IMG/VR virus record: IMGVR_UViG_3300046725_000025 | Span: 1 to 26,849 of that record | Length of the DNA: 26,849 bases | Direction: 5' to 3' (one strand) | Source of the DNA: a virus | Lineage: Duplodnaviria > Caudoviricetes | Shown: piece after piece, positions 5,713 through 23,374 of the stretch | Layout: the number at the start of each line of letters is the position of its first letter | Numbering within the stretch: the first letter of the stretch is position 1 | Program-made: the position numbers and the translations under genes | The notes under the pieces: model-generated | Databases searched by the model: none | Told to the model about the DNA's origin: nothing | The model's input: the letters and a program-made list of their open reading frames with translations, nothing else

Positions 5713-5991
5713 TCAATGCCTCCGACTACTGGCGTTCAAATGGGTATGCACACAAGGCCCCTTGCGATACCGATCCATCACACCTTGCGCCGCTTCCAAA
5801 AACAATCCGCATAATCGCCTATCAAACTGTTCGTCAGTCAACTCCGACTGATTCAAGTCAGTCAGGATCGACAACGTGGACAAGGCACCGGCAAAGAATA
5901 TTTCACGCAGGTGCAGCAACGCCTTGTCGTTCAATCCATCCGCAGCCAACAACTCACGCAAGACTAACCAGTGACTTTCAAGTGGGGGCAT
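5713..5991 (-). CDS. Hypothetical protein, probable distant paralogue of 3341..3646
   Basis: LESHW...HLREIFFAGA vs IEGGW...EMRKAYYLGA; AAGGA upstream. Confidence 0.65.
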   Translation of the reverse strand: MPPLESHWLVLRELLAADGLNDKALLHLREIFFAGALSTLSILTDLNQSELTDEQFDRRLCGLFLEAAQGVMDRYRKGPCVHTHLNASSRRH

Positions 5992-6703: not shown

Positions 6704-6848
6704 AGTTAGTGACAGTCCAAACTGTACAGAACAAGAAGGTCCAACCTGGAACGTCCACCTTGTCATATAGGTCCAGGTGGCACAGTCCGGTCCCGACTCC
6801 CGCCCTCCGCCCCTGCGAGCTTGCGCCTTGCGTCACAGTCTTTGCAAG

Positions 6849-6863
6849 TCTCTACTGTAGAGA
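6849..6863. promoter_or_regulatory. Palindromic operator candidate
   Basis: TCTCTAC-T-GTAGAGA nested in the inverted repeat ACAGTCT (6835)/AGACTGT (6870), just upstream of the early -35. Confidence 0.4.
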
Positions 6864-6875
6864 GTCGACAGACTG

Positions 6876-6905
6876 TTGACTGACGCCCCCGTACTCGTGT
6901 AAGTT
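6876..6905 (+). promoter_or_regulatory. Candidate early sigma70 promoter
   Basis: TTGACT-18 nt-TAAGTT; 10-bp hairpin GTCCTACTCA/TGAGTAGGAC (6912-6937) begins near the expected +1. Confidence 0.45.
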
Positions 6906-6975
6906 CGCGTCGTCCTACTCATTGACGTGAGTAGGACACAAGTCGAAGCGTTTACAACTTACGAGGGCTGAACCC

Positions 6976-7053
6976 ATGACACTAGTACTTCTTGCTTGCG
7001 CGATCTCAGGCTGGGCGCTTTCGCGTCCCGTTGTTGCCGTCCTAGGCGTTTAA
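6976..7053 (+). CDS. 25-aa hydrophobic peptide
   Basis: MTLVLLACAISGWALSRPVVAVLGV; preceded by GAGGGCTGAACCC; stop abuts hairpin A. Confidence 0.55.
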   Translation: MTLVLLACAISGWALSRPVVAVLGV

Positions 7054-7100
7054 CGATTGAACCTTGCGCGGTCGAGGACTGCGCAAGCTTGAGTTGTTAA
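7050..7100 (+). repeat. Intergenic mismatch-hairpin element, copy A
   Basis: TTAAC GA TT G AA C CTTGCGCGGTC gag GACTGCGCAAG C TT G AG TT GTTAA. Confidence 0.85.
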
Positions 7101-7120
7101 CCCACCGAGGAGCTGAACCG

Positions 7121-7342
7121 ATGAGCACAAACCAACTAACAGAGGGCGACGCGCTAGCGTTGGAACAAATGGTCGATATGTACGGCCTGCCAACTGTCAC
7201 CGCAGCGCTTGCCGTGATCTGTGAAATGAAAGCAGAGCACATGCGCGTTAACTGGCAAGAGCCGACGCGCGGCCGGTACTGGACGCGCGCAAGCATCGCA
7301 TTGACCAAAGCAGAGCACGCGGTCACGCGCATTTTGGAATAA
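7121..7342 (+). CDS. Early hypothetical protein (73 aa)
   Basis: ATG 7121 after GGAGCTGAACC; MSTNQLTEGD...KAEHMRVNWQE. Confidence 0.8.
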   Translation: MSTNQLTEGDALALEQMVDMYGLPTVTAALAVICEMKAEHMRVNWQEPTRGRYWTRASIALTKAEHAVTRILE

Positions 7343-7389
7343 CCGTTGCACCTTGTCCCTTATCACTAGGGGACAAGCTGGAATCGTTG
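7340..7389 (+). repeat. Intergenic mismatch-hairpin element, copy B
   Basis: TAAC CG TT G CA C CTTGTCCCTTA tcac TAGGGGACAAG C TG G AA TC GTTG. Confidence 0.85.
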
Positions 7390-7416
7390 AACCATCAAAC
7401 CCATCGGAGCTGAATC

Positions 7417-7599
7417 ATGCAAAACGTCACCTATACCGTCGAAGGCCAGAAGCTTGTCATTACCGTAGACCTATCCCAAAGGCTCGGCCCTAGCGCATCG
7501 GGCAAAACGACACTAGTCGCGAGCACGTCAGGCAATGCAACGCTGCCCGGCGCGAGCGGGATCAAGTTCGGCCTGAATGTCTTTACGCCTAACCGCTAA
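7417..7599 (+). CDS. Small conserved hypothetical protein (SxSGKT...AST family)
   Basis: KLVITVDLS...GPSASGKTTLVASTSGN...GLNVF; GGAGCTGAA start motif. Confidence 0.8.
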   Translation: MQNVTYTVEGQKLVITVDLSQRLGPSASGKTTLVASTSGNATLPGASGIKFGLNVFTPNR

Positions 7600-7651
7600 C
7601 ACTCTGACGAGGCCGGAAGGCCGAAACGCGCACCCCTTGCGCGTCAGTGTT
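7598..7651 (+). ncRNA. Hammerhead ribozyme, type I (HHR1)
   Basis: Stem I AACACT/AGTGTT, core CTGACGA, stem II GGCC-GGAA-GGCC, GAAA, stem III CGCGCA-CCCCT-TGCGCG, GTC triplet with predicted cleavage after C7645. Confidence 0.93.
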
Positions 7652-7686
7652 TCGAGCTGAACCCTTTACCCTTTGGAGCTAATCAA

Positions 7687-8298
7687 ATGTCTACCCGTGC
7701 AACTTATCGCTTTGAAAAGCGATTGCGCGCGCATGGCCCAAGCCATCCGGCGCTAACTCTCTACATCCACCATGACGGCTACCCGTCCGGCGCTGCCGCG
7801 TATTTTTGGGCGGCGCATCACTTTGAAACGCGCGGCTGCTTTGCGGAGGCATTCATTCGCGCCAATGATCGCGCGGAGCTAACCGACTCGCACCAAGTGC
7901 ATGGCGATACGGAATATCGCTACAGCCTCACCGATGGCGTACTAAAAGCCGAAAAGGGTTTTTATGATTCCACCGACACAAAGCAATGGCGCACGATCTT
8001 TGAGGGGCCTTATTGGCAATTTATAAACGCCAATCCCGAAAGCATCGAAGGGTTTACGCCGATTCGCGAAATCCCTAGCACATGGGGACCGCCCTCGTTG
8101 CTATCGCGTCAGCAAGTCGAGGCAAACGTCACACGCGCGCGCAATGAACTGGACAGTTACCGCGCGCGATTCCCGGAGCCATCGGGCAACTTGAACGGCT
8201 GCGAACGTCAAGTCGAACGCGCGCAACAAATCCGCGCGGAGTATGACGCGGCGCAAGCGTTTGAAGGCCACGCGGTAGCGTCTGAGGTGCAGCAATGA
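7687..8298 (+). CDS. Conserved phage early protein (MSTR...YxHxDGYP family)
   Basis: MSTRATY...LYIHHDGYPSG...HGDTEYRY; function unknown. Confidence 0.8.
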   Translation: MSTRATYRFEKRLRAHGPSHPALTLYIHHDGYPSGAAAYFWAAHHFETRGCFAEAFIRANDRAELTDSHQVHGDTEYRYSLTDGVLKAEKGFYDSTDTKQWRTIFEGPYWQFINANPESIEGFTPIREIPSTWGPPSLLSRQQVEANVTRARNELDSYRARFPEPSGNLNGCERQVERAQQIRAEYDAAQAFEGHAVASEVQQ

Positions 8299-8723
8299 GC
8301 GCCTTTGTTGTCGATCAAGCCCACATTAACGCCATTGTGACGTGGGCGAATCACTACCGCCGTCAATTGTCATCCGACACGATGGCTGATGACCCGGAGC
8401 GCTTAGGCCAGCTATTGCTGGATGCGAACATAGCGAGCGTTAACTATCGCTATGCACACAAGCCAGAGGCGCAAAGCGAGCCGGAAAAGTTCGTGTGGCG
8501 TCCATCGCGCGCGCGTGAACTGACGGCCGTCGAAGCCATCAAAGCGTTGCAATGCTTGGACTATCAATCGTGCGAAGTGCAGGACTGGCGCGCCTCACGC
8601 GAAGCGAAAATCATTAGCGCGCTGAAATCCGTGGCCATTAGTGAATTGCCCGGTTACGACGCGGCACCGTGGGCGATAGACGAGGACAAGCCACTACCGC
8701 GCACGAATCACGCAACGCACTGA
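8295..8723 (+). CDS. Conserved hypothetical protein (MSAF...SVNxRY...YQSCE family)
   Basis: ATGA overlap, GAGGT upstream; its TGA stop lies in the HHR2 core. Confidence 0.8.
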   Translation: MSAFVVDQAHINAIVTWANHYRRQLSSDTMADDPERLGQLLLDANIASVNYRYAHKPEAQSEPEKFVWRPSRARELTAVEAIKALQCLDYQSCEVQDWRASREAKIISALKSVAISELPGYDAAPWAIDEDKPLPRTNHATH

Positions 8724-8766
8724 CGAGCCGGGAACGGCGAAACGCGCACGGATGCGCGTCTGCGTT
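8714..8766 (+). ncRNA. Hammerhead ribozyme, type I (HHR2)
   Basis: Stem I AACGCA/TGCGTT, core CTGACGA, stem II GCCG-GGAA-CGGC, GAAA, stem III CGCGCA-CGGA-TGCGCG, GTC with predicted cleavage after C8760. Confidence 0.93.
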
Positions 8767-8787
8767 TTAACTTGAGGAGCTGAAGCC

Positions 8788-9075
8788 ATGCCCAAAATTC
8801 GTTTCATTGTAGAGACTGTCACCAGTGCGCCCGACGCGAGCGGGAATAGTTACCACTTCGCGCGCATCACATCGACCGCGACCGGCAAATATTTGCGCCT
8901 TGAAACGGGGGGCGTCAATAACGCGCTTTCCTTCGTCAATGGCATTTGTGACGGCGAGCAAATTTATTGCGCGAACCTGACGCTGCCGAAAAAACAATGG
9001 AGCGCACAAGCGCGCCGCGTTGACCGCTACGAGCACACGACAACAGAGGCCGACGTATTGGCGCTAGAACACTAA
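8788..9075 (+). CDS. Early hypothetical protein
   Basis: 95 aa after GGAGCTGAA; D.SGNSYHF motif. Confidence 0.8.
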   Translation: MPKIRFIVETVTSAPDASGNSYHFARITSTATGKYLRLETGGVNNALSFVNGICDGEQIYCANLTLPKKQWSAQARRVDRYEHTTTEADVLALEH

Positions 9076-9121
9076 CGCTTGAACCTTGCGCACGCGTGAC
9101 GTGCGCAAGCTTGAATCGTTA
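9073..9121 (+). repeat. Intergenic mismatch-hairpin element, copy C
   Basis: TAAC GC TT G AA C CTTGCGCACG cgtga CGTGCGCAAG C TT G AA TC GTTA. Confidence 0.85.
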
Positions 9122-9141
9122 ACCACTGAGGAGCTGAACAC

Positions 9142-9564
9142 ATGAGTACACAAAAGACATTTGCGCGCACTGCGCGCCCAACGCGCTGCCCGTGGCATCG
9201 CATCAATAGCACGCACGAAATCGCGCCCGGTATTTGGAGCGTTAGCACGGAATCGCACGGCGGGATTTTAATCAGCGCCGAACGTCGCGCCGCGATGCCC
9301 GCACACTTGCGCGATATTCCGACGTTTGCAGGCGGCAATGCGTATGAGGAGGACTGTGACGCGGGAATTATTCTGGTCGCGTTTCCTGAGTATTTTCCTG
9401 CCGACTATGTAGAGAATGCGCGCCTTTCGCTGATGCGCTATGACCGCGAGCCGCGCGAGTGGGAAACCGGCCAAGCCTATTACGTGGCACTACGCGCCGC
9501 CGCGCAATTCATCAAGCAGCACGGCATACCGCAAGCCATGCAACAAACGGAGCTATCACTGTGA
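9142..9564 (+). CDS. DUF7007-like protein
   Basis: PW...APGIWSVSTESHGG...S.ER...MP..LR...YEEDC. Confidence 0.65.
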   Translation: MSTQKTFARTARPTRCPWHRINSTHEIAPGIWSVSTESHGGILISAERRAAMPAHLRDIPTFAGGNAYEEDCDAGIILVAFPEYFPADYVENARLSLMRYDREPREWETGQAYYVALRAAAQFIKQHGIPQAMQQTELSL

Positions 9565-9737
9565 GCGCGGCGCAACTGCGGCAACTATTGGCGCACTGCG
9601 AAAAGACACTCGCGTTTTTTGAGGATAATGACTATTTCCCGCACGAGCATGGCAATCGGGAAGTAGGCGAAGCATGGGGGGCCATTGCCGACGCGGTGGA
9701 CATCGCGCGCGAATTAGTGAACAAGGCGAAAGCCTGA
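9561..9737 (+). CDS. Small hypothetical protein (58 aa)
   Basis: GTGA overlap, GGAGCT at 9549; stop abuts hairpin D. Confidence 0.65.
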   Translation: MSAAQLRQLLAHCEKTLAFFEDNDYFPHEHGNREVGEAWGAIADAVDIARELVNKAKA

Positions 9738-9784
9738 CACTTGCACTCTGTGCCCGCTATGCGGGCGCAGACTGGAATTGTTAG
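9734..9784 (+). repeat. Intergenic mismatch-hairpin element, copy D
   Basis: CTGAC AC TT G CA C TCTGTGCCCGC tat GCGGGCGCAGA C TG G AA TT GTTAG. Confidence 0.85.
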
Positions 9785-9818
9785 AATCGACAAACCGTAG
9801 ACAGGAGCTGAACCCAAT

Positions 9819-10034
9819 ATGACACCACAGAAATTTACCAAACTCGTCAGCCAGCTTGCGAAGGCTGAGACTGAGCTAACCCGTGCCATGAACAAGTGGC
9901 ACAAAATTCGTGGCCAGATCAAGCGCGCGGAAAAAACGCTTGATAAGCAATTCAACAACCGCGCGAGTGAAATCGGCGGCAAGTATGACGTGCGCGACTT
10001 GGCCGAACAAACCAACATCACTAAGAGGAGCTAA
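9819..10034 (+). CDS. Small basic coiled-coil protein
   Basis: 71 aa after GGAGCTGAACCC. Confidence 0.75.
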   Translation: MTPQKFTKLVSQLAKAETELTRAMNKWHKIRGQIKRAEKTLDKQFNNRASEIGGKYDVRDLAEQTNITKRS

Positions 10035-10038
10035 CACG

Positions 10039-10380
10039 ATGACGACACAAACCAAACCACGCCACGCCGACGATGCCGTCGATGTGGCGGATATTCTGGC
10101 CAAGCTGCCGCCCGTATGCGCGCACGTACTAGAGCCGCAACACGAGCCGATATTCATCAAGCGCGGCGAGCGTGGCTACTACCCCGCGCACGTTCTCACC
10201 ACTGCCATGCACCGGCACGCGATGACCGTCGAACAAGTTGTAAGCGCGTGGAACGCGCGGCACAACGTCAGCGCGCAGCAAGAGTTGTGCATGTTAATCG
10301 GCTCAATGCGTGGCTGGGAAGTGCCCGGCGCGGACGTTGACTATATGGACGCGATGGACCAGGAGCGCGCCCGTGCGTAA
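10039..10380 (+). CDS. Conserved hypothetical protein (IKRGExGY...GSMxGWxVPGA family)
   Basis: ATG 10039 after GGAGCTAAC; motif recalled from mobile-element proteins. Confidence 0.75.
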   Translation: MTTQTKPRHADDAVDVADILAKLPPVCAHVLEPQHEPIFIKRGERGYYPAHVLTTAMHRHAMTVEQVVSAWNARHNVSAQQELCMLIGSMRGWEVPGADVDYMDAMDQERARA

Positions 10381-10561
10381 CGATAAAAATTCCGCGCCAC
10401 CGGCCAACGAGGGCAGACCGTGGGACGCGGCCGATGACGTGGAGCTAATCGCGCTACTGCGTCAGCGCAAGTCGCTCAAGCAAATCGCCAACAAGCTACA
10501 GCGCACCGAGGAGGGCATATTTGCGCGCATGAGCTACTTCGTCACGCGCATACCGGCGTAG
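10373..10561 (+). CDS. Small Myb/SANT-like HTH protein
   Basis: NEGRPWDAADD..L.......SLKQIANKLQRTEEGIFAR; AGGAG upstream of GTG 10373. Confidence 0.65.
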   Translation: MRNDKNSAPPANEGRPWDAADDVELIALLRQRKSLKQIANKLQRTEEGIFARMSYFVTRIPA

Positions 10562-10592
10562 ATGGAAGTCTTCTCAATTCGCGAATCGAGAA

Positions 10593-10644
10593 TGACGCTT
10601 GCACTCTGCGCCGGTATATATACCGGCGCAGACTGGAATCGTTA
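10593..10644 (+). repeat. Intergenic mismatch-hairpin element, copy E
   Basis: TGAC GC TT G CA C TCTGCGCCGGTA tata TACCGGCGCAGA C TG G AA TC GTTA. Confidence 0.85.
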
Positions 10645-10663
10645 ACCCTGTAGGAGCTGAACC

Positions 10664-11047
10664 ATGAACCGACCCCAACCGAATACCACTGAGGACGAAT
10701 TGTACGAGTGCCAAAATTGCAGCGAGCAATGGACTGAAAGCGAATTGCTGGATATCAAAGACTTCGATCAGCGCGTCGCGCCGGGCGAGCCAACGCCAGC
10801 AGGCGAGTGCCCGGACTGCGGCTGCTTGTGCCAACCTGTTGGCGATGACGATGAAATCGAAATCACCGTCACTGCACAACAACGCGCGACGCTGGTCGCT
10901 GCGCTGCGTTTTTATCAAATGAACGGGCAGGGCGATCCCGATCACCGCAGGGACGAAATTCACGAGCTGGCCACGGCCGACGACGCTGTGATTAGTTTGG
11001 ACGCGGCGGGCATTGGCAAGTTGTTCAATTTGATTCGCGCGAGCTGA
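10664..11047 (+). CDS. Zn-ribbon hypothetical protein
   Basis: CQNC...RVAPGEPTPAGECPDCG; acidic; GGAGCTGAACC start motif. Confidence 0.75.
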   Translation: MNRPQPNTTEDELYECQNCSEQWTESELLDIKDFDQRVAPGEPTPAGECPDCGCLCQPVGDDDEIEITVTAQQRATLVAALRFYQMNGQGDPDHRRDEIHELATADDAVISLDAAGIGKLFNLIRAS

Positions 11048-11095
11048 GAGGCTTGCCGTGCTGCGCCTTCACTGAGGGCGCAGTCGGGAACCCTT
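11048..11095 (+). repeat. Intergenic mismatch-hairpin element, divergent copy G
   Basis: GAG GC TT G CCG tg CTGCGCCTTC act GAGGGCGCAG t CGG G AA CC CTT; keeps TT-G/G-AA with compensatory changes. Confidence 0.7.
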
Positions 11096-11128
11096 CCGGG
11101 AACCATAACCACACGAGGAGCTGAATGA

Positions 11129-11452
11129 ATGAAGACTGTTATTCTCGCAAGCGCACTGCTTGCAATGGCAACGACGGGATGCGTGGTCAACAAAGTATTG
11201 GAGCCAACGGGCGGCAGTAAGGCCGACGGCACGGTGCGAATGTCCTACACGGTGGGCGCATTCGAGCAAGCCAAAGTCGATTTTGGTATGGCGCAATCGA
11301 AGGCCGTGTCTCGCTGCCAAGCATGGGGCTACGAGGGCGCGGAACGGTTCGGCGGTAGCACCAGCGTGTGCAATATGTTCGACGGCTATGGTGGCTGCAA
11401 TCAGTCCACCATCACCATCGAGTATCAGTGCATCGGCAAAATTAAGGAGTGA
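11129..11452 (+). CDS. YecR-family lipoprotein
   Basis: Signal peptide with lipobox-like TTGC; GGSKADGTV.MSY...RCQAWGY..AE.FGG....C...C...EYQC. Confidence 0.8.
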   Translation: MKTVILASALLAMATTGCVVNKVLEPTGGSKADGTVRMSYTVGAFEQAKVDFGMAQSKAVSRCQAWGYEGAERFGGSTSVCNMFDGYGGCNQSTITIEYQCIGKIKE

Positions 11453-11496
11453 CACTTGCACCCTGCATCGGTTCGCCGGTGCAGGCTGGAATTGTT
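11451..11496 (+). repeat. Intergenic mismatch-hairpin element, copy F
   Basis: GAC AC TT G CA C CCTGCATCGG ttcg CCGGTGCAGG C TG G AA TT GTT; UUCG loop. Confidence 0.85.
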
Positions 11497-11518
11497 TCCA
11501 AGATAGGAGCTGAACCGT

Positions 11519-11683
11519 ATGCACTGGCTAATGATCGTAAGCGTTGCCCTGTTTGTCGTCTCGTACCGGGCGCAGCATGACCCCAATCCGTTACTTTGCA
11601 TTGTGACGTTCGTGCTTGGCGCTATTTGCTACATGGCGGGCGTCGAATTAGGCGCACGTCGAAAAGACCGCAAGCGCAAATAA
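11519..11683 (+). CDS. Small membrane protein (54 aa)
   Basis: Hand translation MHWLMIVSVALFVVSY...LLCIVTFVLGAICYMAGV...RRKDRKRK; GGAGCTGAACC start motif. Confidence 0.7.
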   Translation: MHWLMIVSVALFVVSYRAQHDPNPLLCIVTFVLGAICYMAGVELGARRKDRKRK

Positions 11684-11684
11684 C

Positions 11685-11903
11685 ATGGCCTTCACCCTAG
11701 GCAAACTCCGCTACGTGCAGGCGGTCAACGCGTACAAGTACCATGCTCGCGTGCATGGCCTACCCGTGCAACGCATCCGCGAGTCACTATGCCGTCGCGA
11801 GCAGTCCGGCAATTGGGTGCTGGCCAATGAGCACGGCACCGTCGCGACTGTCACGCTGCGATTGCGGGTGACTGTCGCCTCACAATCAAGCGACGAGCCT
11901 TAA
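11685..11903 (+). CDS. Hypothetical protein
   Basis: 72 aa, last ORF before the terminator. Confidence 0.55.
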   Translation: MAFTLGKLRYVQAVNAYKYHARVHGLPVQRIRESLCRREQSGNWVLANEHGTVATVTLRLRVTVASQSSDEP

Positions 11904-11927
11904 GCGCAAAATTTTGGTGAGCCTCTT

Positions 11928-11953
11928 GCCGCCTTCGGGCGGCTTTGTTTTTT
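11928..11953 (+). terminator. Rho-independent terminator of the early operon
   Basis: GCCGCC-TTCG-GGCGGC followed by TTTGTTTTTT. Confidence 0.85.
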
Positions 11954-12325: not shown

Positions 12326-14011
12326 ATGCCTACCGAACCCCTTACCCCGGCCTTCCTCAAGAAGCTGGGCACCAAACCAGAGCATATTGGCGAGACCTAC
12401 CGAGACACAAAAGAGGAGGGGCTATCCGTCCGCACCGGCAAGAACGGAAAACTATCCTTCTATATTCGTATGTCGCTGGACAACGGCGACCGCCCGGAGA
12501 CGAGCTTCTATAAGTGCCGCCCGGCAGAAGTTGACCAGGAGAGGCTAGACAAAATCATCGAGCTAGCTCAGGACCAAAAACGCGAATGGAGGAAACGCGG
12601 GGTGGTGGCTGAAAAGACAGGGCACCCCCTGCGGGAAGTCCTCGATCTAGCCACGGCATTGAAGCGCAAAGGCGATAGGGATATTGGTCGCAGGCGGGGC
12701 GTCAGCAAGACGGGAGGCTTACCGAAAGAATGGCTAAAAACCTACGATAAATTCAGGGCCATGTGCCCAGAACTATTGGACCGTCCCGTTGAGACCATTA
12801 CCAGGGCCGAATACAAGGCGTGTCAGGAACGTGAGGCGCTAAAGCAGGACCACGCACGGGGCGGCTCGCTCACCAAAGACGATTACCTTATGGACAAAAT
12901 CAAGTCGCAGCGACCCATGTGGGCCAATGTTATTCAAGCGCTGGACTACGCGTCTGACGAGGGCTGGATTACGCCGAAGGAAATAAAAAACCTTGTGCCG
13001 CTGCCTTACGATCCCCGCACTCGTTTCCTCTTGCCAGGCGAGTGGCAGATCGTTGCGCCGCTCATTGATAAGTTGCCTAGGGATGGCGGCATGATGCTGC
13101 GATTCTTACTCGCGACCGGCGCGCGCTTGGGTCAAGCGCTAGCGATGAAGTGGGCCGACATCGACGCTATCGAAAAGATCAAAACACCAGACGGCCAAGA
13201 ACACGACACTCGCCTATGGCGTATCCCGCTTCAAAAGCACAACGTGGGGTTAACGATGCTAATAGGTGACTCGCTGGCCATCGTGAATCACTTCAAGCTG
13301 CATCGCGACATCGAGCAGAAAGCCGAACAAGAAGCCGAAAACGAAAGGGCGCGGAATGTGAAGCGCGAAAGCAAAAAAATACCTAAGCGCGACACCGTTT
13401 TCCCCGCAGAGGTCATCTCGATGTGGCGAAGAAACGCATCACGCCACCAACGCAAACTAGATGAAAAGGTGGACGTGGAGACGGACGACGACGACATCGA
13501 AAGCGAACTGGGCATTAGCCGCTGGACTCGCCACGATTTGCGCCGCACCAAGGCGACGTATTCTAAGTACGTGCGAACAAGCCAATACCATGTATCGAAA
13601 ATGCTCTCGCACGAAACCAAGGCCAGCACAGCAACCGGGCAGGATGCCGCGCTCGTTACTGATCGGTACACAATGGACGACGCCTACACTGAACAGATCG
13701 GGACCGATGACGATATTGACACCGATGACGATTACAGCGCTGACATTGCGCTGGCTCACTTACGGGTGCAGGCGCTATTCAGGCAAATGGAACGGGGCGA
13801 GCTATCGCCGGTATTGGCTCGCATTCAGAAAGTGCTTGGCGGGGTAGGCGGTGTCAACACCAACAAAATGCGGGTGCGCTATGGCATTCACGCTTCGTTA
13901 ATCAAGATCAAGGAGGTCACGCCAAAAGCCGCCGCCGCACAAGCCACCCAAAAATCAGGCAATGTCGTAATGGCCACCATGCAACACGAAGCGACACGTA
14001 GCGCCACGTAG
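12326..14011 (+). CDS. int: Tyrosine recombinase / phage integrase (561 aa)
   Basis: Arm-binding-like N-terminus (YRDTKEEGLSVR...SFYIR), LLATGAR, HDLRRT, MLSH, TDRY; ATG 12326 after GGAGCTGAA. Confidence 0.88.
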   Translation: MPTEPLTPAFLKKLGTKPEHIGETYRDTKEEGLSVRTGKNGKLSFYIRMSLDNGDRPETSFYKCRPAEVDQERLDKIIELAQDQKREWRKRGVVAEKTGHPLREVLDLATALKRKGDRDIGRRRGVSKTGGLPKEWLKTYDKFRAMCPELLDRPVETITRAEYKACQEREALKQDHARGGSLTKDDYLMDKIKSQRPMWANVIQALDYASDEGWITPKEIKNLVPLPYDPRTRFLLPGEWQIVAPLIDKLPRDGGMMLRFLLATGARLGQALAMKWADIDAIEKIKTPDGQEHDTRLWRIPLQKHNVGLTMLIGDSLAIVNHFKLHRDIEQKAEQEAENERARNVKRESKKIPKRDTVFPAEVISMWRRNASRHQRKLDEKVDVETDDDDIESELGISRWTRHDLRRTKATYSKYVRTSQYHVSKMLSHETKASTATGQDAALVTDRYTMDDAYTEQIGTDDDIDTDDDYSADIALAHLRVQALFRQMERGELSPVLARIQKVLGGVGGVNTNKMRVRYGIHASLIKIKEVTPKAAAAQATQKSGNVVMATMQHEATRSAT

Positions 14012-23077: not shown

Positions 23078-23290
23078 ATGCGGAAAAAGATTAGTCTGAT
23101 CCCAGTCAAGCCGATGGGTAACGAGCGCTTCGTGATTTTCCAGTACCGGACTGATCGAATTGACCACTGTCATCTAGTGACTAGTTGCACTAACAGCGAA
23201 TTAGATGACGCGCTGGACCGAATTAAGGACGCGAGAAGAAACGGCGTGATGACAAAAAAGGCCGCGCCCTCGGAAGGAAGCGCGGCCTGA
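23078..23290 (+). CDS. Hypothetical protein
   Basis: About 70 aa; start uncertain. Confidence 0.4.
   Translation: MRKKISLIPVKPMGNERFVIFQYRTDRIDHCHLVTSCTNSELDDALDRIKDARRNGVMTKKAAPSEGSAA
23254..23288 (-). terminator. Possible minus-strand intrinsic terminator
   Basis: AGGCCGCGC/GCGCGGCCT stem preceded by an A6 run on +. Confidence 0.4.
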
Positions 23291-23374
23291 ACAGGGACTA
23301 ACTAAGTCAGGCAACCATGACGCAGGAGGGGTCGCCGACTGACAGTATACACCCGTCAGTCGGCGCTGTAGACC

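Follow-up and report, generated by a model that had tools for sequence, protein, structure and literature searches.

Hammerhead ribozymes and putative RNase III hairpins share the gene boundaries of an early operon in a temperate phage

Layout of the operon and its boundary elements

The window, a 26,849-nt stretch of Caudoviricetes DNA, contains a plus-strand operon in which nine gene boundaries between 6976 and 11903 carry a structured element, either a type I hammerhead ribozyme (two instances) or a mismatched hairpin (seven instances). All nine were found at the boundaries listed in the first-pass annotation, and no further copies of either element were detected elsewhere in the window. 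The features of the locus are the following:

6876 to 6905, plus strand: candidate sigma-70 promoter, from sequence (TTGACT, 18 nt, TAAGTT)
6912 to 6937, plus strand: 11-bp leader hairpin, from folding, outside the repeated family
6976 to 7053, plus strand: first gene, 25-aa hydrophobic peptide; start conserved in four relatives
7050 to 7100, plus strand: hairpin 1; predicted 3'-arm nick before 7090
7121 to 7342, plus strand: gene A, 73 aa, no family; preceded by a hammerhead in relative L121
7340 to 7389, plus strand: hairpin 2; predicted nick before 7380
7417 to 7599, plus strand: gene B, 60 aa, no family
7598 to 7651, plus strand: type I hammerhead 1; predicted cut after 7645
7687 to 8723, plus strand: two genes without a family, C (203 aa) and D (142 aa), that overlap at ATGA
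8714 to 8766, plus strand: type I hammerhead 2, holding the stop codon of gene D in its CUGA core; predicted cut after 8760
8788 to 9075, plus strand: gene E, 95 aa, no family
9073 to 9121, plus strand: hairpin 3; predicted nick before 9112
9142 to 9737, plus strand: overlapping genes F (DUF7007, PF22653, E 1e-22) and G (58 aa)
9734 to 9783, plus strand: hairpin 4; predicted nick before 9774
9819 to 10561, plus strand: genes I (71 aa), J (113 aa, phrog_10280) and K (62 aa, weak HTH match), element-free between them
10571 to 10592, no strand assigned: near-perfect 22-bp palindrome, present in L123 and L124 too
10593 to 10644, plus strand: hairpin 5; predicted nick before 10635
10664 to 11047, plus strand: gene L, 127 aa, Cys-pair protein, no confident family
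11046 to 11097, plus strand: hairpin 6, divergent, with a bulged U; departs from the strict box rule
11129 to 11452, plus strand: gene M, YecR-like lipoprotein (PF13992, E 8e-20)
11450 to 11497, plus strand: hairpin 7; predicted nick before 11488
11519 to 11903, plus strand: genes N (54 aa, hydrophobic) and O (72 aa)
11928 to 11953, plus strand: intrinsic terminator, listed by scan; 92% match in L121
12088 to 12154, plus strand: tRNA-Lys fragment, probable attP, upstream of a tyrosine integrase gene (12326 to 14011)

The boundary grammar outlined in the first-pass annotation stood in most respects. The order of stop codon followed by element is exact at seven of the nine boundaries, but at 8714 the TGA stop (8721-8723) sits within the hammerhead CUGA core, and at 10593 the hairpin begins 31 nt past the upstream stop (10561), after the 22-bp palindrome. 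An (A/G)AC..GTT helix does close eight of the nine elements, the exception at 11048 being GAG/CTT, and the ribosome-binding site GGAGCT(G)AA is present, but it is not specific to these cassettes, standing also before the integrase gene (12314) and a minus-strand ATG (15130). Regarding the ends of the unit, the proposed terminator at 11928 was recovered by the scan, and the proposed promoter at 6876 was not listed by a consensus scan but has a TTG..TGcTAnnnT counterpart at the equivalent place in all four aligned relatives. Searches of the operon proteins against NCBIfam returned no confident family. A RecT-like gene is present in the window, and a gene for RNase III is absent from all five phage records.

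Structure and distribution of the two elements

Both hammerheads present the CUGANGA, GAAA and NUH core with three stems. Their cores are complete (CTGACGA at 7604 and 8720), with stems I, II and III of 6, 4 and 7 bp, a GUC cut triplet and a GGAA loop closing stem II. A hammerhead descriptor matched the window twice on the plus strand and never on the minus strand, with no matches in 200 shuffles, while Rfam hammerhead models gave no match at gathering score and just partial, sub-threshold type II/III matches (17-19 bits). A U at 1.7 and a terminal loop A were observed in all eight hammerheads having a 6-bp stem I and a tetraloop stem II; a stem I-loop II tertiary contact is described for hammerheads in the available text of PMC9217987.

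The hairpins are unbranched, 21-23 rungs long, with three 1x1 mismatches and G-U pairs, and fold on the plus strand with z-scores of -4.0 to -7.6. Copies are about 60-85% alike. In their alignment, 95.5% of cells are paired and 12 of 19 pairs are compensatory, a level reached in none of 500 shuffles, the copies being non-independent. Just three pairs are invariant: a U-A, a second U-A seven rungs on, and then a G-C. The sequence GGAGCTGAA occurs 10 times, against 0.22 expected. A covariance model (R1) built from six window hairpins and six from relatives recovered all seven window copies on the plus strand, including the unmodelled one at 11046 (E 3e-5), with a best match of E 0.075 in the rest of the window and far higher scores for all seven copies on the sense strand. 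R1 missed the hairpins of relatives L122, L123 and L124 among the 95 of about 319 loci listed. Rfam models, those for RAGATH included, gave the hairpin no match, with E cut-offs of 10 for 6850-9200 and 1 for the whole window.

The UUG..GAA motif of the hairpin also appears in L214 and L199, contigs without protein match to the operon, and in L202 and L215, these copies coming from a pattern that requires the motif. A loose pattern gave 120 matches, none of them hairpin-forming. With a second loose pattern, applied to 9 of 64 collection parts, 15 of 121 matches had at least four inner pairs and just two L199 copies look real by eye; a stricter pattern, run on 401 genomes from the class to which the attP-matching genome belongs, matched in one of them.

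Exchange of elements in related contigs

The hammerhead-to-hairpin swaps that the first-pass annotation had envisaged were found in related contigs, where the grammar is kept and five relatives show swaps at four orthologous boundaries. L122 occupies the same slots with hairpins unrelated in sequence. Leaders are also of similar extent, measuring 21-41 nt downstream of hammerheads and 29-45 nt downstream of predicted nicks. The integrase search yielded one relative, annotated phages showed no similarity beyond the tRNA fragment, and elements are mostly absent next to distant homologues of genes B and C.

Homology borders also fall at the elements: the block shared by the close relatives L123 and L124 opens within a hairpin and ends at a stop codon that precedes a hammerhead cassette. 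The first-pass reading is borne out in part, for the swaps and the homology borders, but not for RecT-driven cassette swapping. Such swapping is unproven, since any mosaic phage would be expected to show breakpoints at gene boundaries and the similarity between hairpin copies is only about 60-85%.

RNase III as the likely second cutter, and other readings

RNase III substrates of about 22 bp have been described (PMC6212723). The hairpin length fits this figure, with 10-12 rungs on the loop side of the predicted axis in the six matching copies, close to the roughly 11 bp from cut to loop of a T7-type site, and the three invariant pairs coincide with the pb2', pb2 and pb1 proximal-box positions of PMC1540722. 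A box rule (A-U or U-A at pb2 on both sides and G-C at pb1), framed post hoc with the alignment already seen, is obeyed by six of the seven window copies against 1.9 expected, counting non-independent copies within one phage; hairpin 6 fails. In relatives it holds for 4/4 hairpins of L121, 1/1 of L243 and 3/5 of the sequence-unrelated hairpins of L122 (not significant alone, P 0.11), but for 0/4 of L123 and 0/2 of L124, whose variants break pb2. The rule also passes mostly on the reverse strand, and a tightened form is obeyed by 6 of 150 other plus-strand folds. As a control, it matched four of seven T7 hairpins and put the R1.1 product start at 5888, the available text of PMC8708148 giving the cut as 5887; of the ten T7 regions, three were set aside because their folds were short, and in one the fold was a promoter hairpin.

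Other measures, based on E. coli rules that may differ from those of the enzyme of this uncertain host, were less favourable. Instead of A-U at pb3 and A-U or U-A at pb4, pb3 is U-A or C-G and pb4 is C-G in four of the six matching window copies. On the E. coli double-cut matrix, the hairpins score -22 to -28, not above permuted stems (P 0.16-1.0), and the 11-bp leader hairpin lies far lower (-36.7). Central mismatches reduce this score. The core log-odds score of the hairpins is worse than that of permuted stems (window P 0.99), but this test does not discriminate, because real T7 hairpins also fail it (P 0.975). In favour of the RNase III reading, G.G is the commonest mismatch at the equivalent position of E. 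coli RNase III sites (6/85).

The hairpins resemble the T7 early mRNA sites (R1.1 and others) in being intergenic imperfect hairpins of about 22 bp that precede the ribosome-binding sites of an early operon, with the same pb2'/pb2/pb1 spacing and a purine-purine mismatch followed by C-G beside the predicted cut, A.A in R0.3 and R1.1 and mostly G.G here. In contrast to the asymmetric 4/5 loop of T7, mismatches here are symmetric and 1x1; pb2 is U-A rather than A-U, and C-G is common at pb3 and pb4. Also unlike T7, the phage is temperate, its hairpins are mixed with hammerheads, and their cutting is predicted from sequence. The first-pass annotation had called the hairpin unrecognised; no Rfam family matches it, but the best reading is a host RNase III site of the T7 type rather than a new class.

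Since relatives carry one element in place of the other, the hairpins are likely cutters too. The reading we favour, with a probability of about 0.68, is that two hammerheads, predicted to self-cut, and seven hairpins, likely nicked by host RNase III, split the 5-kb transcript into about ten mRNAs. A single transcript would run from 6876 to 11953; the hammerheads would cut themselves after 7645 and 8760, and RNase III would nick the 3' arm of the hairpins between GACU and GGAAU, in a register like that of T7 R1.1. Whichever the cutter, the upstream mRNA would end in a folded 3' structure and the downstream one would receive a leader of about 21-45 nt with the same ribosome-binding site. Each cargo gene could thus be expressed independently of its neighbours, and cassettes could therefore be gained, lost and moved. 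Hammerheads leave a 5'-OH and RNase III a 5'-phosphate, so the choice of cutter may tune stability.

It is possible, but rather unlikely, that cutting is by hammerheads alone and that uncut hairpins act as 3'-to-5' exonuclease barriers, binding sites for RNase III or another protein, or insulators keeping the ribosome-binding site open. The pb4 composition is consistent with this, since C-G there lowers E. coli RNase III reactivity 7-fold with binding kept (PMC1540722), as are the lowered double-cut score and the broken pb2 of the L123 and L124 variants. A plain barrier, however, needs neither conserved mismatches nor fixed spacing of invariant pairs, T7 nick sites are similarly mismatched at their centre, and the hairpins stand in for cutters at orthologous boundaries, with leaders that match in length. 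Recognition of UUG..GAA by a phage-encoded or other host endonuclease would agree with the motif in L214, L199, L202 and L215, copies retrieved by requiring it, but appears very improbable: the L122 slots hold sequence-unrelated hairpins, the 15 operon proteins include no nuclease family, and RNase III boxes already account for the conserved positions.

We regard as equally improbable a new class of self-cleaving RNA, a G.G/C.C hairpin of about 50 nt, smaller and simpler than known ones, that several phages interchange with hammerheads. Occupied ribozyme slots, the conserved G.G and C.C mismatches and the lack of an Rfam match would suit such a class, but the unbranched fold with its three 1x1 mismatches shows no obvious catalytic core, L243 has C-G in place of G.G, and C.C is missing in L123 and L124. 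Slightly less probable still is that the repeats matter chiefly as DNA, as RecT recombination targets or single-strand DNA signals. The PeSL cassettes of T4-type phages are a precedent for recombination cassettes, the window has its RecT-like gene, and the L123/L124 homology is bounded by a hairpin and a hammerhead-cassette stop codon. PeSL cassettes, however, reportedly each have their own promoter in the repeat, whereas the consensus scan detected no promoter-like site inside 6960-11953; the sense-strand preference and the use of G-U pairs point to RNA, hammerheads work only as RNA, gene-border breakpoints are to be expected even without RecT, and any recombination may be a side effect rather than the selected role.

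Both components of the favoured RNase III and hammerhead arrangement are already known. Single-strand cuts at T7 RNase III sites mature and protect mRNAs, according to the available text of PMC8708148. The accessible part of Perreault et al. 2011 (PMC3088659) describes tandem prophage hammerheads, several flanking single genes or short blocks of varying identity, reports in vitro cleavage for three arrays, and proposes that hammerheads process long phage transcripts into gene-length mRNAs. Like those arrays, the operon has hammerheads between its genes; unlike them, as far as that text goes, it uses minimal type I hammerheads and a non-ribozyme hairpin in alternation for the same boundaries. 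The literature searched, with subscription journals largely outside it, held no published interchange of hammerheads and RNase III sites.

What self-cleaving ribozymes do in phage and bacterial genomes is an open question according to the available text of PMC6765202. If a hammerhead is exchangeable for an RNase III site at one boundary, its job there would most simply be T7-style mRNA processing, and the natural swaps provide a ready-made test of ribozyme role. They also carry a warning: among unknown motifs found near ribozyme genes, some may turn out to be RNase III sites rather than new ribozymes. RAGATH motifs (Weinberg, 2015 and 2017) are reportedly other structured RNAs near ribozyme-associated genes; the hairpin resembles them in its gene context but matches no RAGATH model. 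If the favoured reading is true, the operon would represent a natural insulator design, in which small accessory genes are shuffled without retuning translation. RiboJ-type synthetic insulators cut just upstream of the ribosome-binding site, yielding a standard 5' leader; unlike them, the arrangement described here is natural, has nine repeats and would use two interchangeable cutters.

Structured elements in the small-gene operon

The window is an entire virus record encoding RecE-like and RecT-like genes and a tyrosine integrase preceded by a tRNA-Lys fragment, features that identify it as a temperate phage. A 47-nt stretch of the tRNA returned one exact match in the genome collection searched, in a Coxiellaceae MAG, which weakly suggests a gammaproteobacterial host. 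The operon (6976-11903) comprises 15 small genes, all in one direction, with confident matches only to DUF7007, a YecR-like lipoprotein and phrog_10280. Its candidate promoter is conserved in all four relatives compared, and all five aligned phages share a conserved C-rich motif about 60 nt 5' of it (window 6797-6829; L122 4561-4593). The promoter-proximal gene (6976-7053 in the window) varies from 25 to 60 aa among the window and the related contigs L121-L124, with a hydrophobic N-terminus conserved in all five. Outside the operon, a sub-threshold Rfam match to the SorX sRNA (23254-23332, minus strand; 33 bits vs 46.6; E 1.6e-4) comprises a CCCUCC hairpin and a terminator, possibly constituting an antisense RNA.

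Features of the operon (plus strand)
6876..6905, candidate promoter
7050, hairpin 1
7340, hairpin 2
7598, hammerhead 1
8714, hammerhead 2
9073, hairpin 3
9734, hairpin 4
10593, hairpin 5
11046, hairpin 6
11450, hairpin 7
11928..11953, terminator

All nine intergenic elements claimed by the first-pass annotation were found. Both hammerheads present complete type I cores; the descriptor matches the window twice, and 200 shuffles gave no match. The seven hairpins show fold z-scores of -4.0 to -7.6 and are all detected by model R1, built from six window copies and six copies of relatives; beyond these seven, searching the window with R1 returned no other convincing match, and in the nearest relative (47 kb) it gave only four copies, all within the matching operon. 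The proposed order of stop codon then element holds at most boundaries, but hammerhead 2 contains the gene D stop within its core, and 31 nt separate hairpin 5 from the stop of the gene before it; in eight of nine cases the element and the stop codon of the preceding gene overlap. A core common to the hairpins reads 5'-YUUG MA C Y / R CU KG AAU and has a G.G mismatch and usually a C.C mismatch two pairs apart. The GGAGCTGAA motif occurs in 10 copies (0.22 expected) and is also used by two genes outside the unit. The architecture is real and well built.

Exchange of elements among related phages

Searches via gene C homologues uncovered this grammar in five other phage contigs (L121, L122, L123, L124 and L243), including a close pair, L123 and L124 (80% over 2.3 kb). 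The predicted exchange between hammerheads and hairpins was observed at four orthologous boundaries, providing comparative evidence that the two elements may be equivalent at these positions.

Elements at orthologous boundaries
Before gene C: hammerhead in window, L243; hairpin in L122, L123, L124; direct overlap in L121
After gene C: overlap in window, L121; hammerhead in L123, L124, L243; hairpin in L122
Before gene A: hairpin in window; hammerhead in L121
Before the MGTY-starting gene (absent from the window): hammerhead in L123/L124; hairpin in L122

Gene gain and loss at the elements, also anticipated, was evident between L123 and L124. Their homology begins within a hairpin and breaks off at a stop codon, the point at which L124 has gained two genes and a hammerhead; another shared block reaches as far as the 3' edge of a hammerhead. 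Near-identical hairpins were located in further viral contigs chosen by the motif pattern itself (L199 4290-4342 and 4992-5045; L202 73-117, minus strand; L214 2330-2377; L215 1477-1519); in L215 the nearest gene 5' of the hairpin appears on the opposite strand.

Several other features were noted in these contigs. The corresponding operon slot of L122 (5453-5929) encodes a RadC-family protein (TIGR00608 above cut-off), and in L243 a small extra hairpin (580-620) separates the hammerhead from the ribosome-binding site of its gene C homologue. Contigs with distant gene C homologues contain type I hammerheads whose loop II differs (UGGUUA; L295 949 and L310 238). A 22-bp near-perfect palindrome, possibly an operator or recombination scar, is found once in the window (10571-10592) and directly beyond the operon terminator in L123 (8816-8837) and L124 (8878-8899).

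The hairpin as a candidate RNase III site

The hairpin had no match in Rfam. Across 12 copies, 95.5% of cells are paired, with compensatory changes at 12 of 19 pairs; since the copies are related, this covariation shows the fold, not independent selection. Hairpins in the same slots of L122 have similar length and unrelated sequence, pointing to a protein that reads structure, and the length of 21-23 rungs (stem positions) fits RNase III. Judging from sequence, the hairpin is a candidate RNase III processing site, a specific and testable proposal. A search of five phage records for an RNase III gene gave no hit in any of them.

Stems were scored with the E. coli double-cut matrix of PMC6212723. 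The scores (-22 to -28) lie within the range of real sites, as do those of permuted stems. On the core version of the score the hairpins fared worse than permuted stems, but T7 intergenic hairpins also fail it, and it is thus unfit to judge single-nick sites.

The proximal box of RNase III is described as having G-C at position pb1 and A-U or U-A at pb2 (PMC1540722). Three hairpin pairs never vary in the alignment: a U-A, a second U-A seven rungs on and an adjoining G-C, which for a symmetric dimer are the positions pb2', pb2 and pb1. Under this rule, framed after the alignment was inspected, agreement was seen for 6/7 hairpins in the window (1.9 expected), 4/4 in L121, 1/1 in L243, 3/5 in L122 (P 0.11), 0/4 in L123 and 0/2 in L124. 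By eye, hairpin 6 would pass were its bulged U left out. With a loop-distance condition added, 6 of 150 other, looser plus-strand folds pass. Four of the seven T7 hairpins also matched, and the three resulting positions other than R1.1 agree with known sites. At R1.1 the predicted product start is 5888, the published cut being reported at 5887 (PMC8708148). T7 R0.3 and R1.1 present A.A then C-G where window-type hairpins mostly present G.G then C-G. The RNase III reading is weakened by C-G at pb4 in most copies, reported to make E. coli RNase III 7-fold slower (PMC1540722). It is further weakened by four copies, three of them in L123 and one in L124, whose loop-side box has pyrimidine mismatches; these would fit a one-sided cut but break the rule.

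Proposed processing of the operon transcript

Dicing of T7 mRNA by RNase III is textbook knowledge. Tandem prophage hammerheads were reported in 2011 with transcript dicing proposed and cleavage of three arrays demonstrated (Perreault 2011, PMC3088659), and a 2019 review described the purpose of self-cleaving ribozymes in phage and bacterial genomes as still undefined (PMC6765202). Our literature search, at the level of listings, returned no report of interchange between hammerheads and RNase III sites; the Weinberg supplements may contain related motifs. What is new is the combination of two known processing devices, their equivalence backed by comparative evidence.

We propose that a single transcript, running from the candidate promoter to the terminator, would be cut nine times, yielding ten mRNAs that each carry between one and three genes. 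With either cutter, the upstream piece would retain a folded 3' end, and the 5' chemistry of the products would differ between the two. Because the stop codon overlaps most elements, a terminating ribosome could delay their folding. RecT-driven swapping of these cassettes is also possible. Leaders left by predicted 3'-arm nicks measure 29-45 nt, and those left by predicted hammerhead cuts 41 and 27 nt in the window and 21-41 nt across the relatives parsed. The longest hammerhead leader (41 nt) follows hammerhead 1 and contains two tandem motifs resembling ribosome-binding sites (7654-7684).
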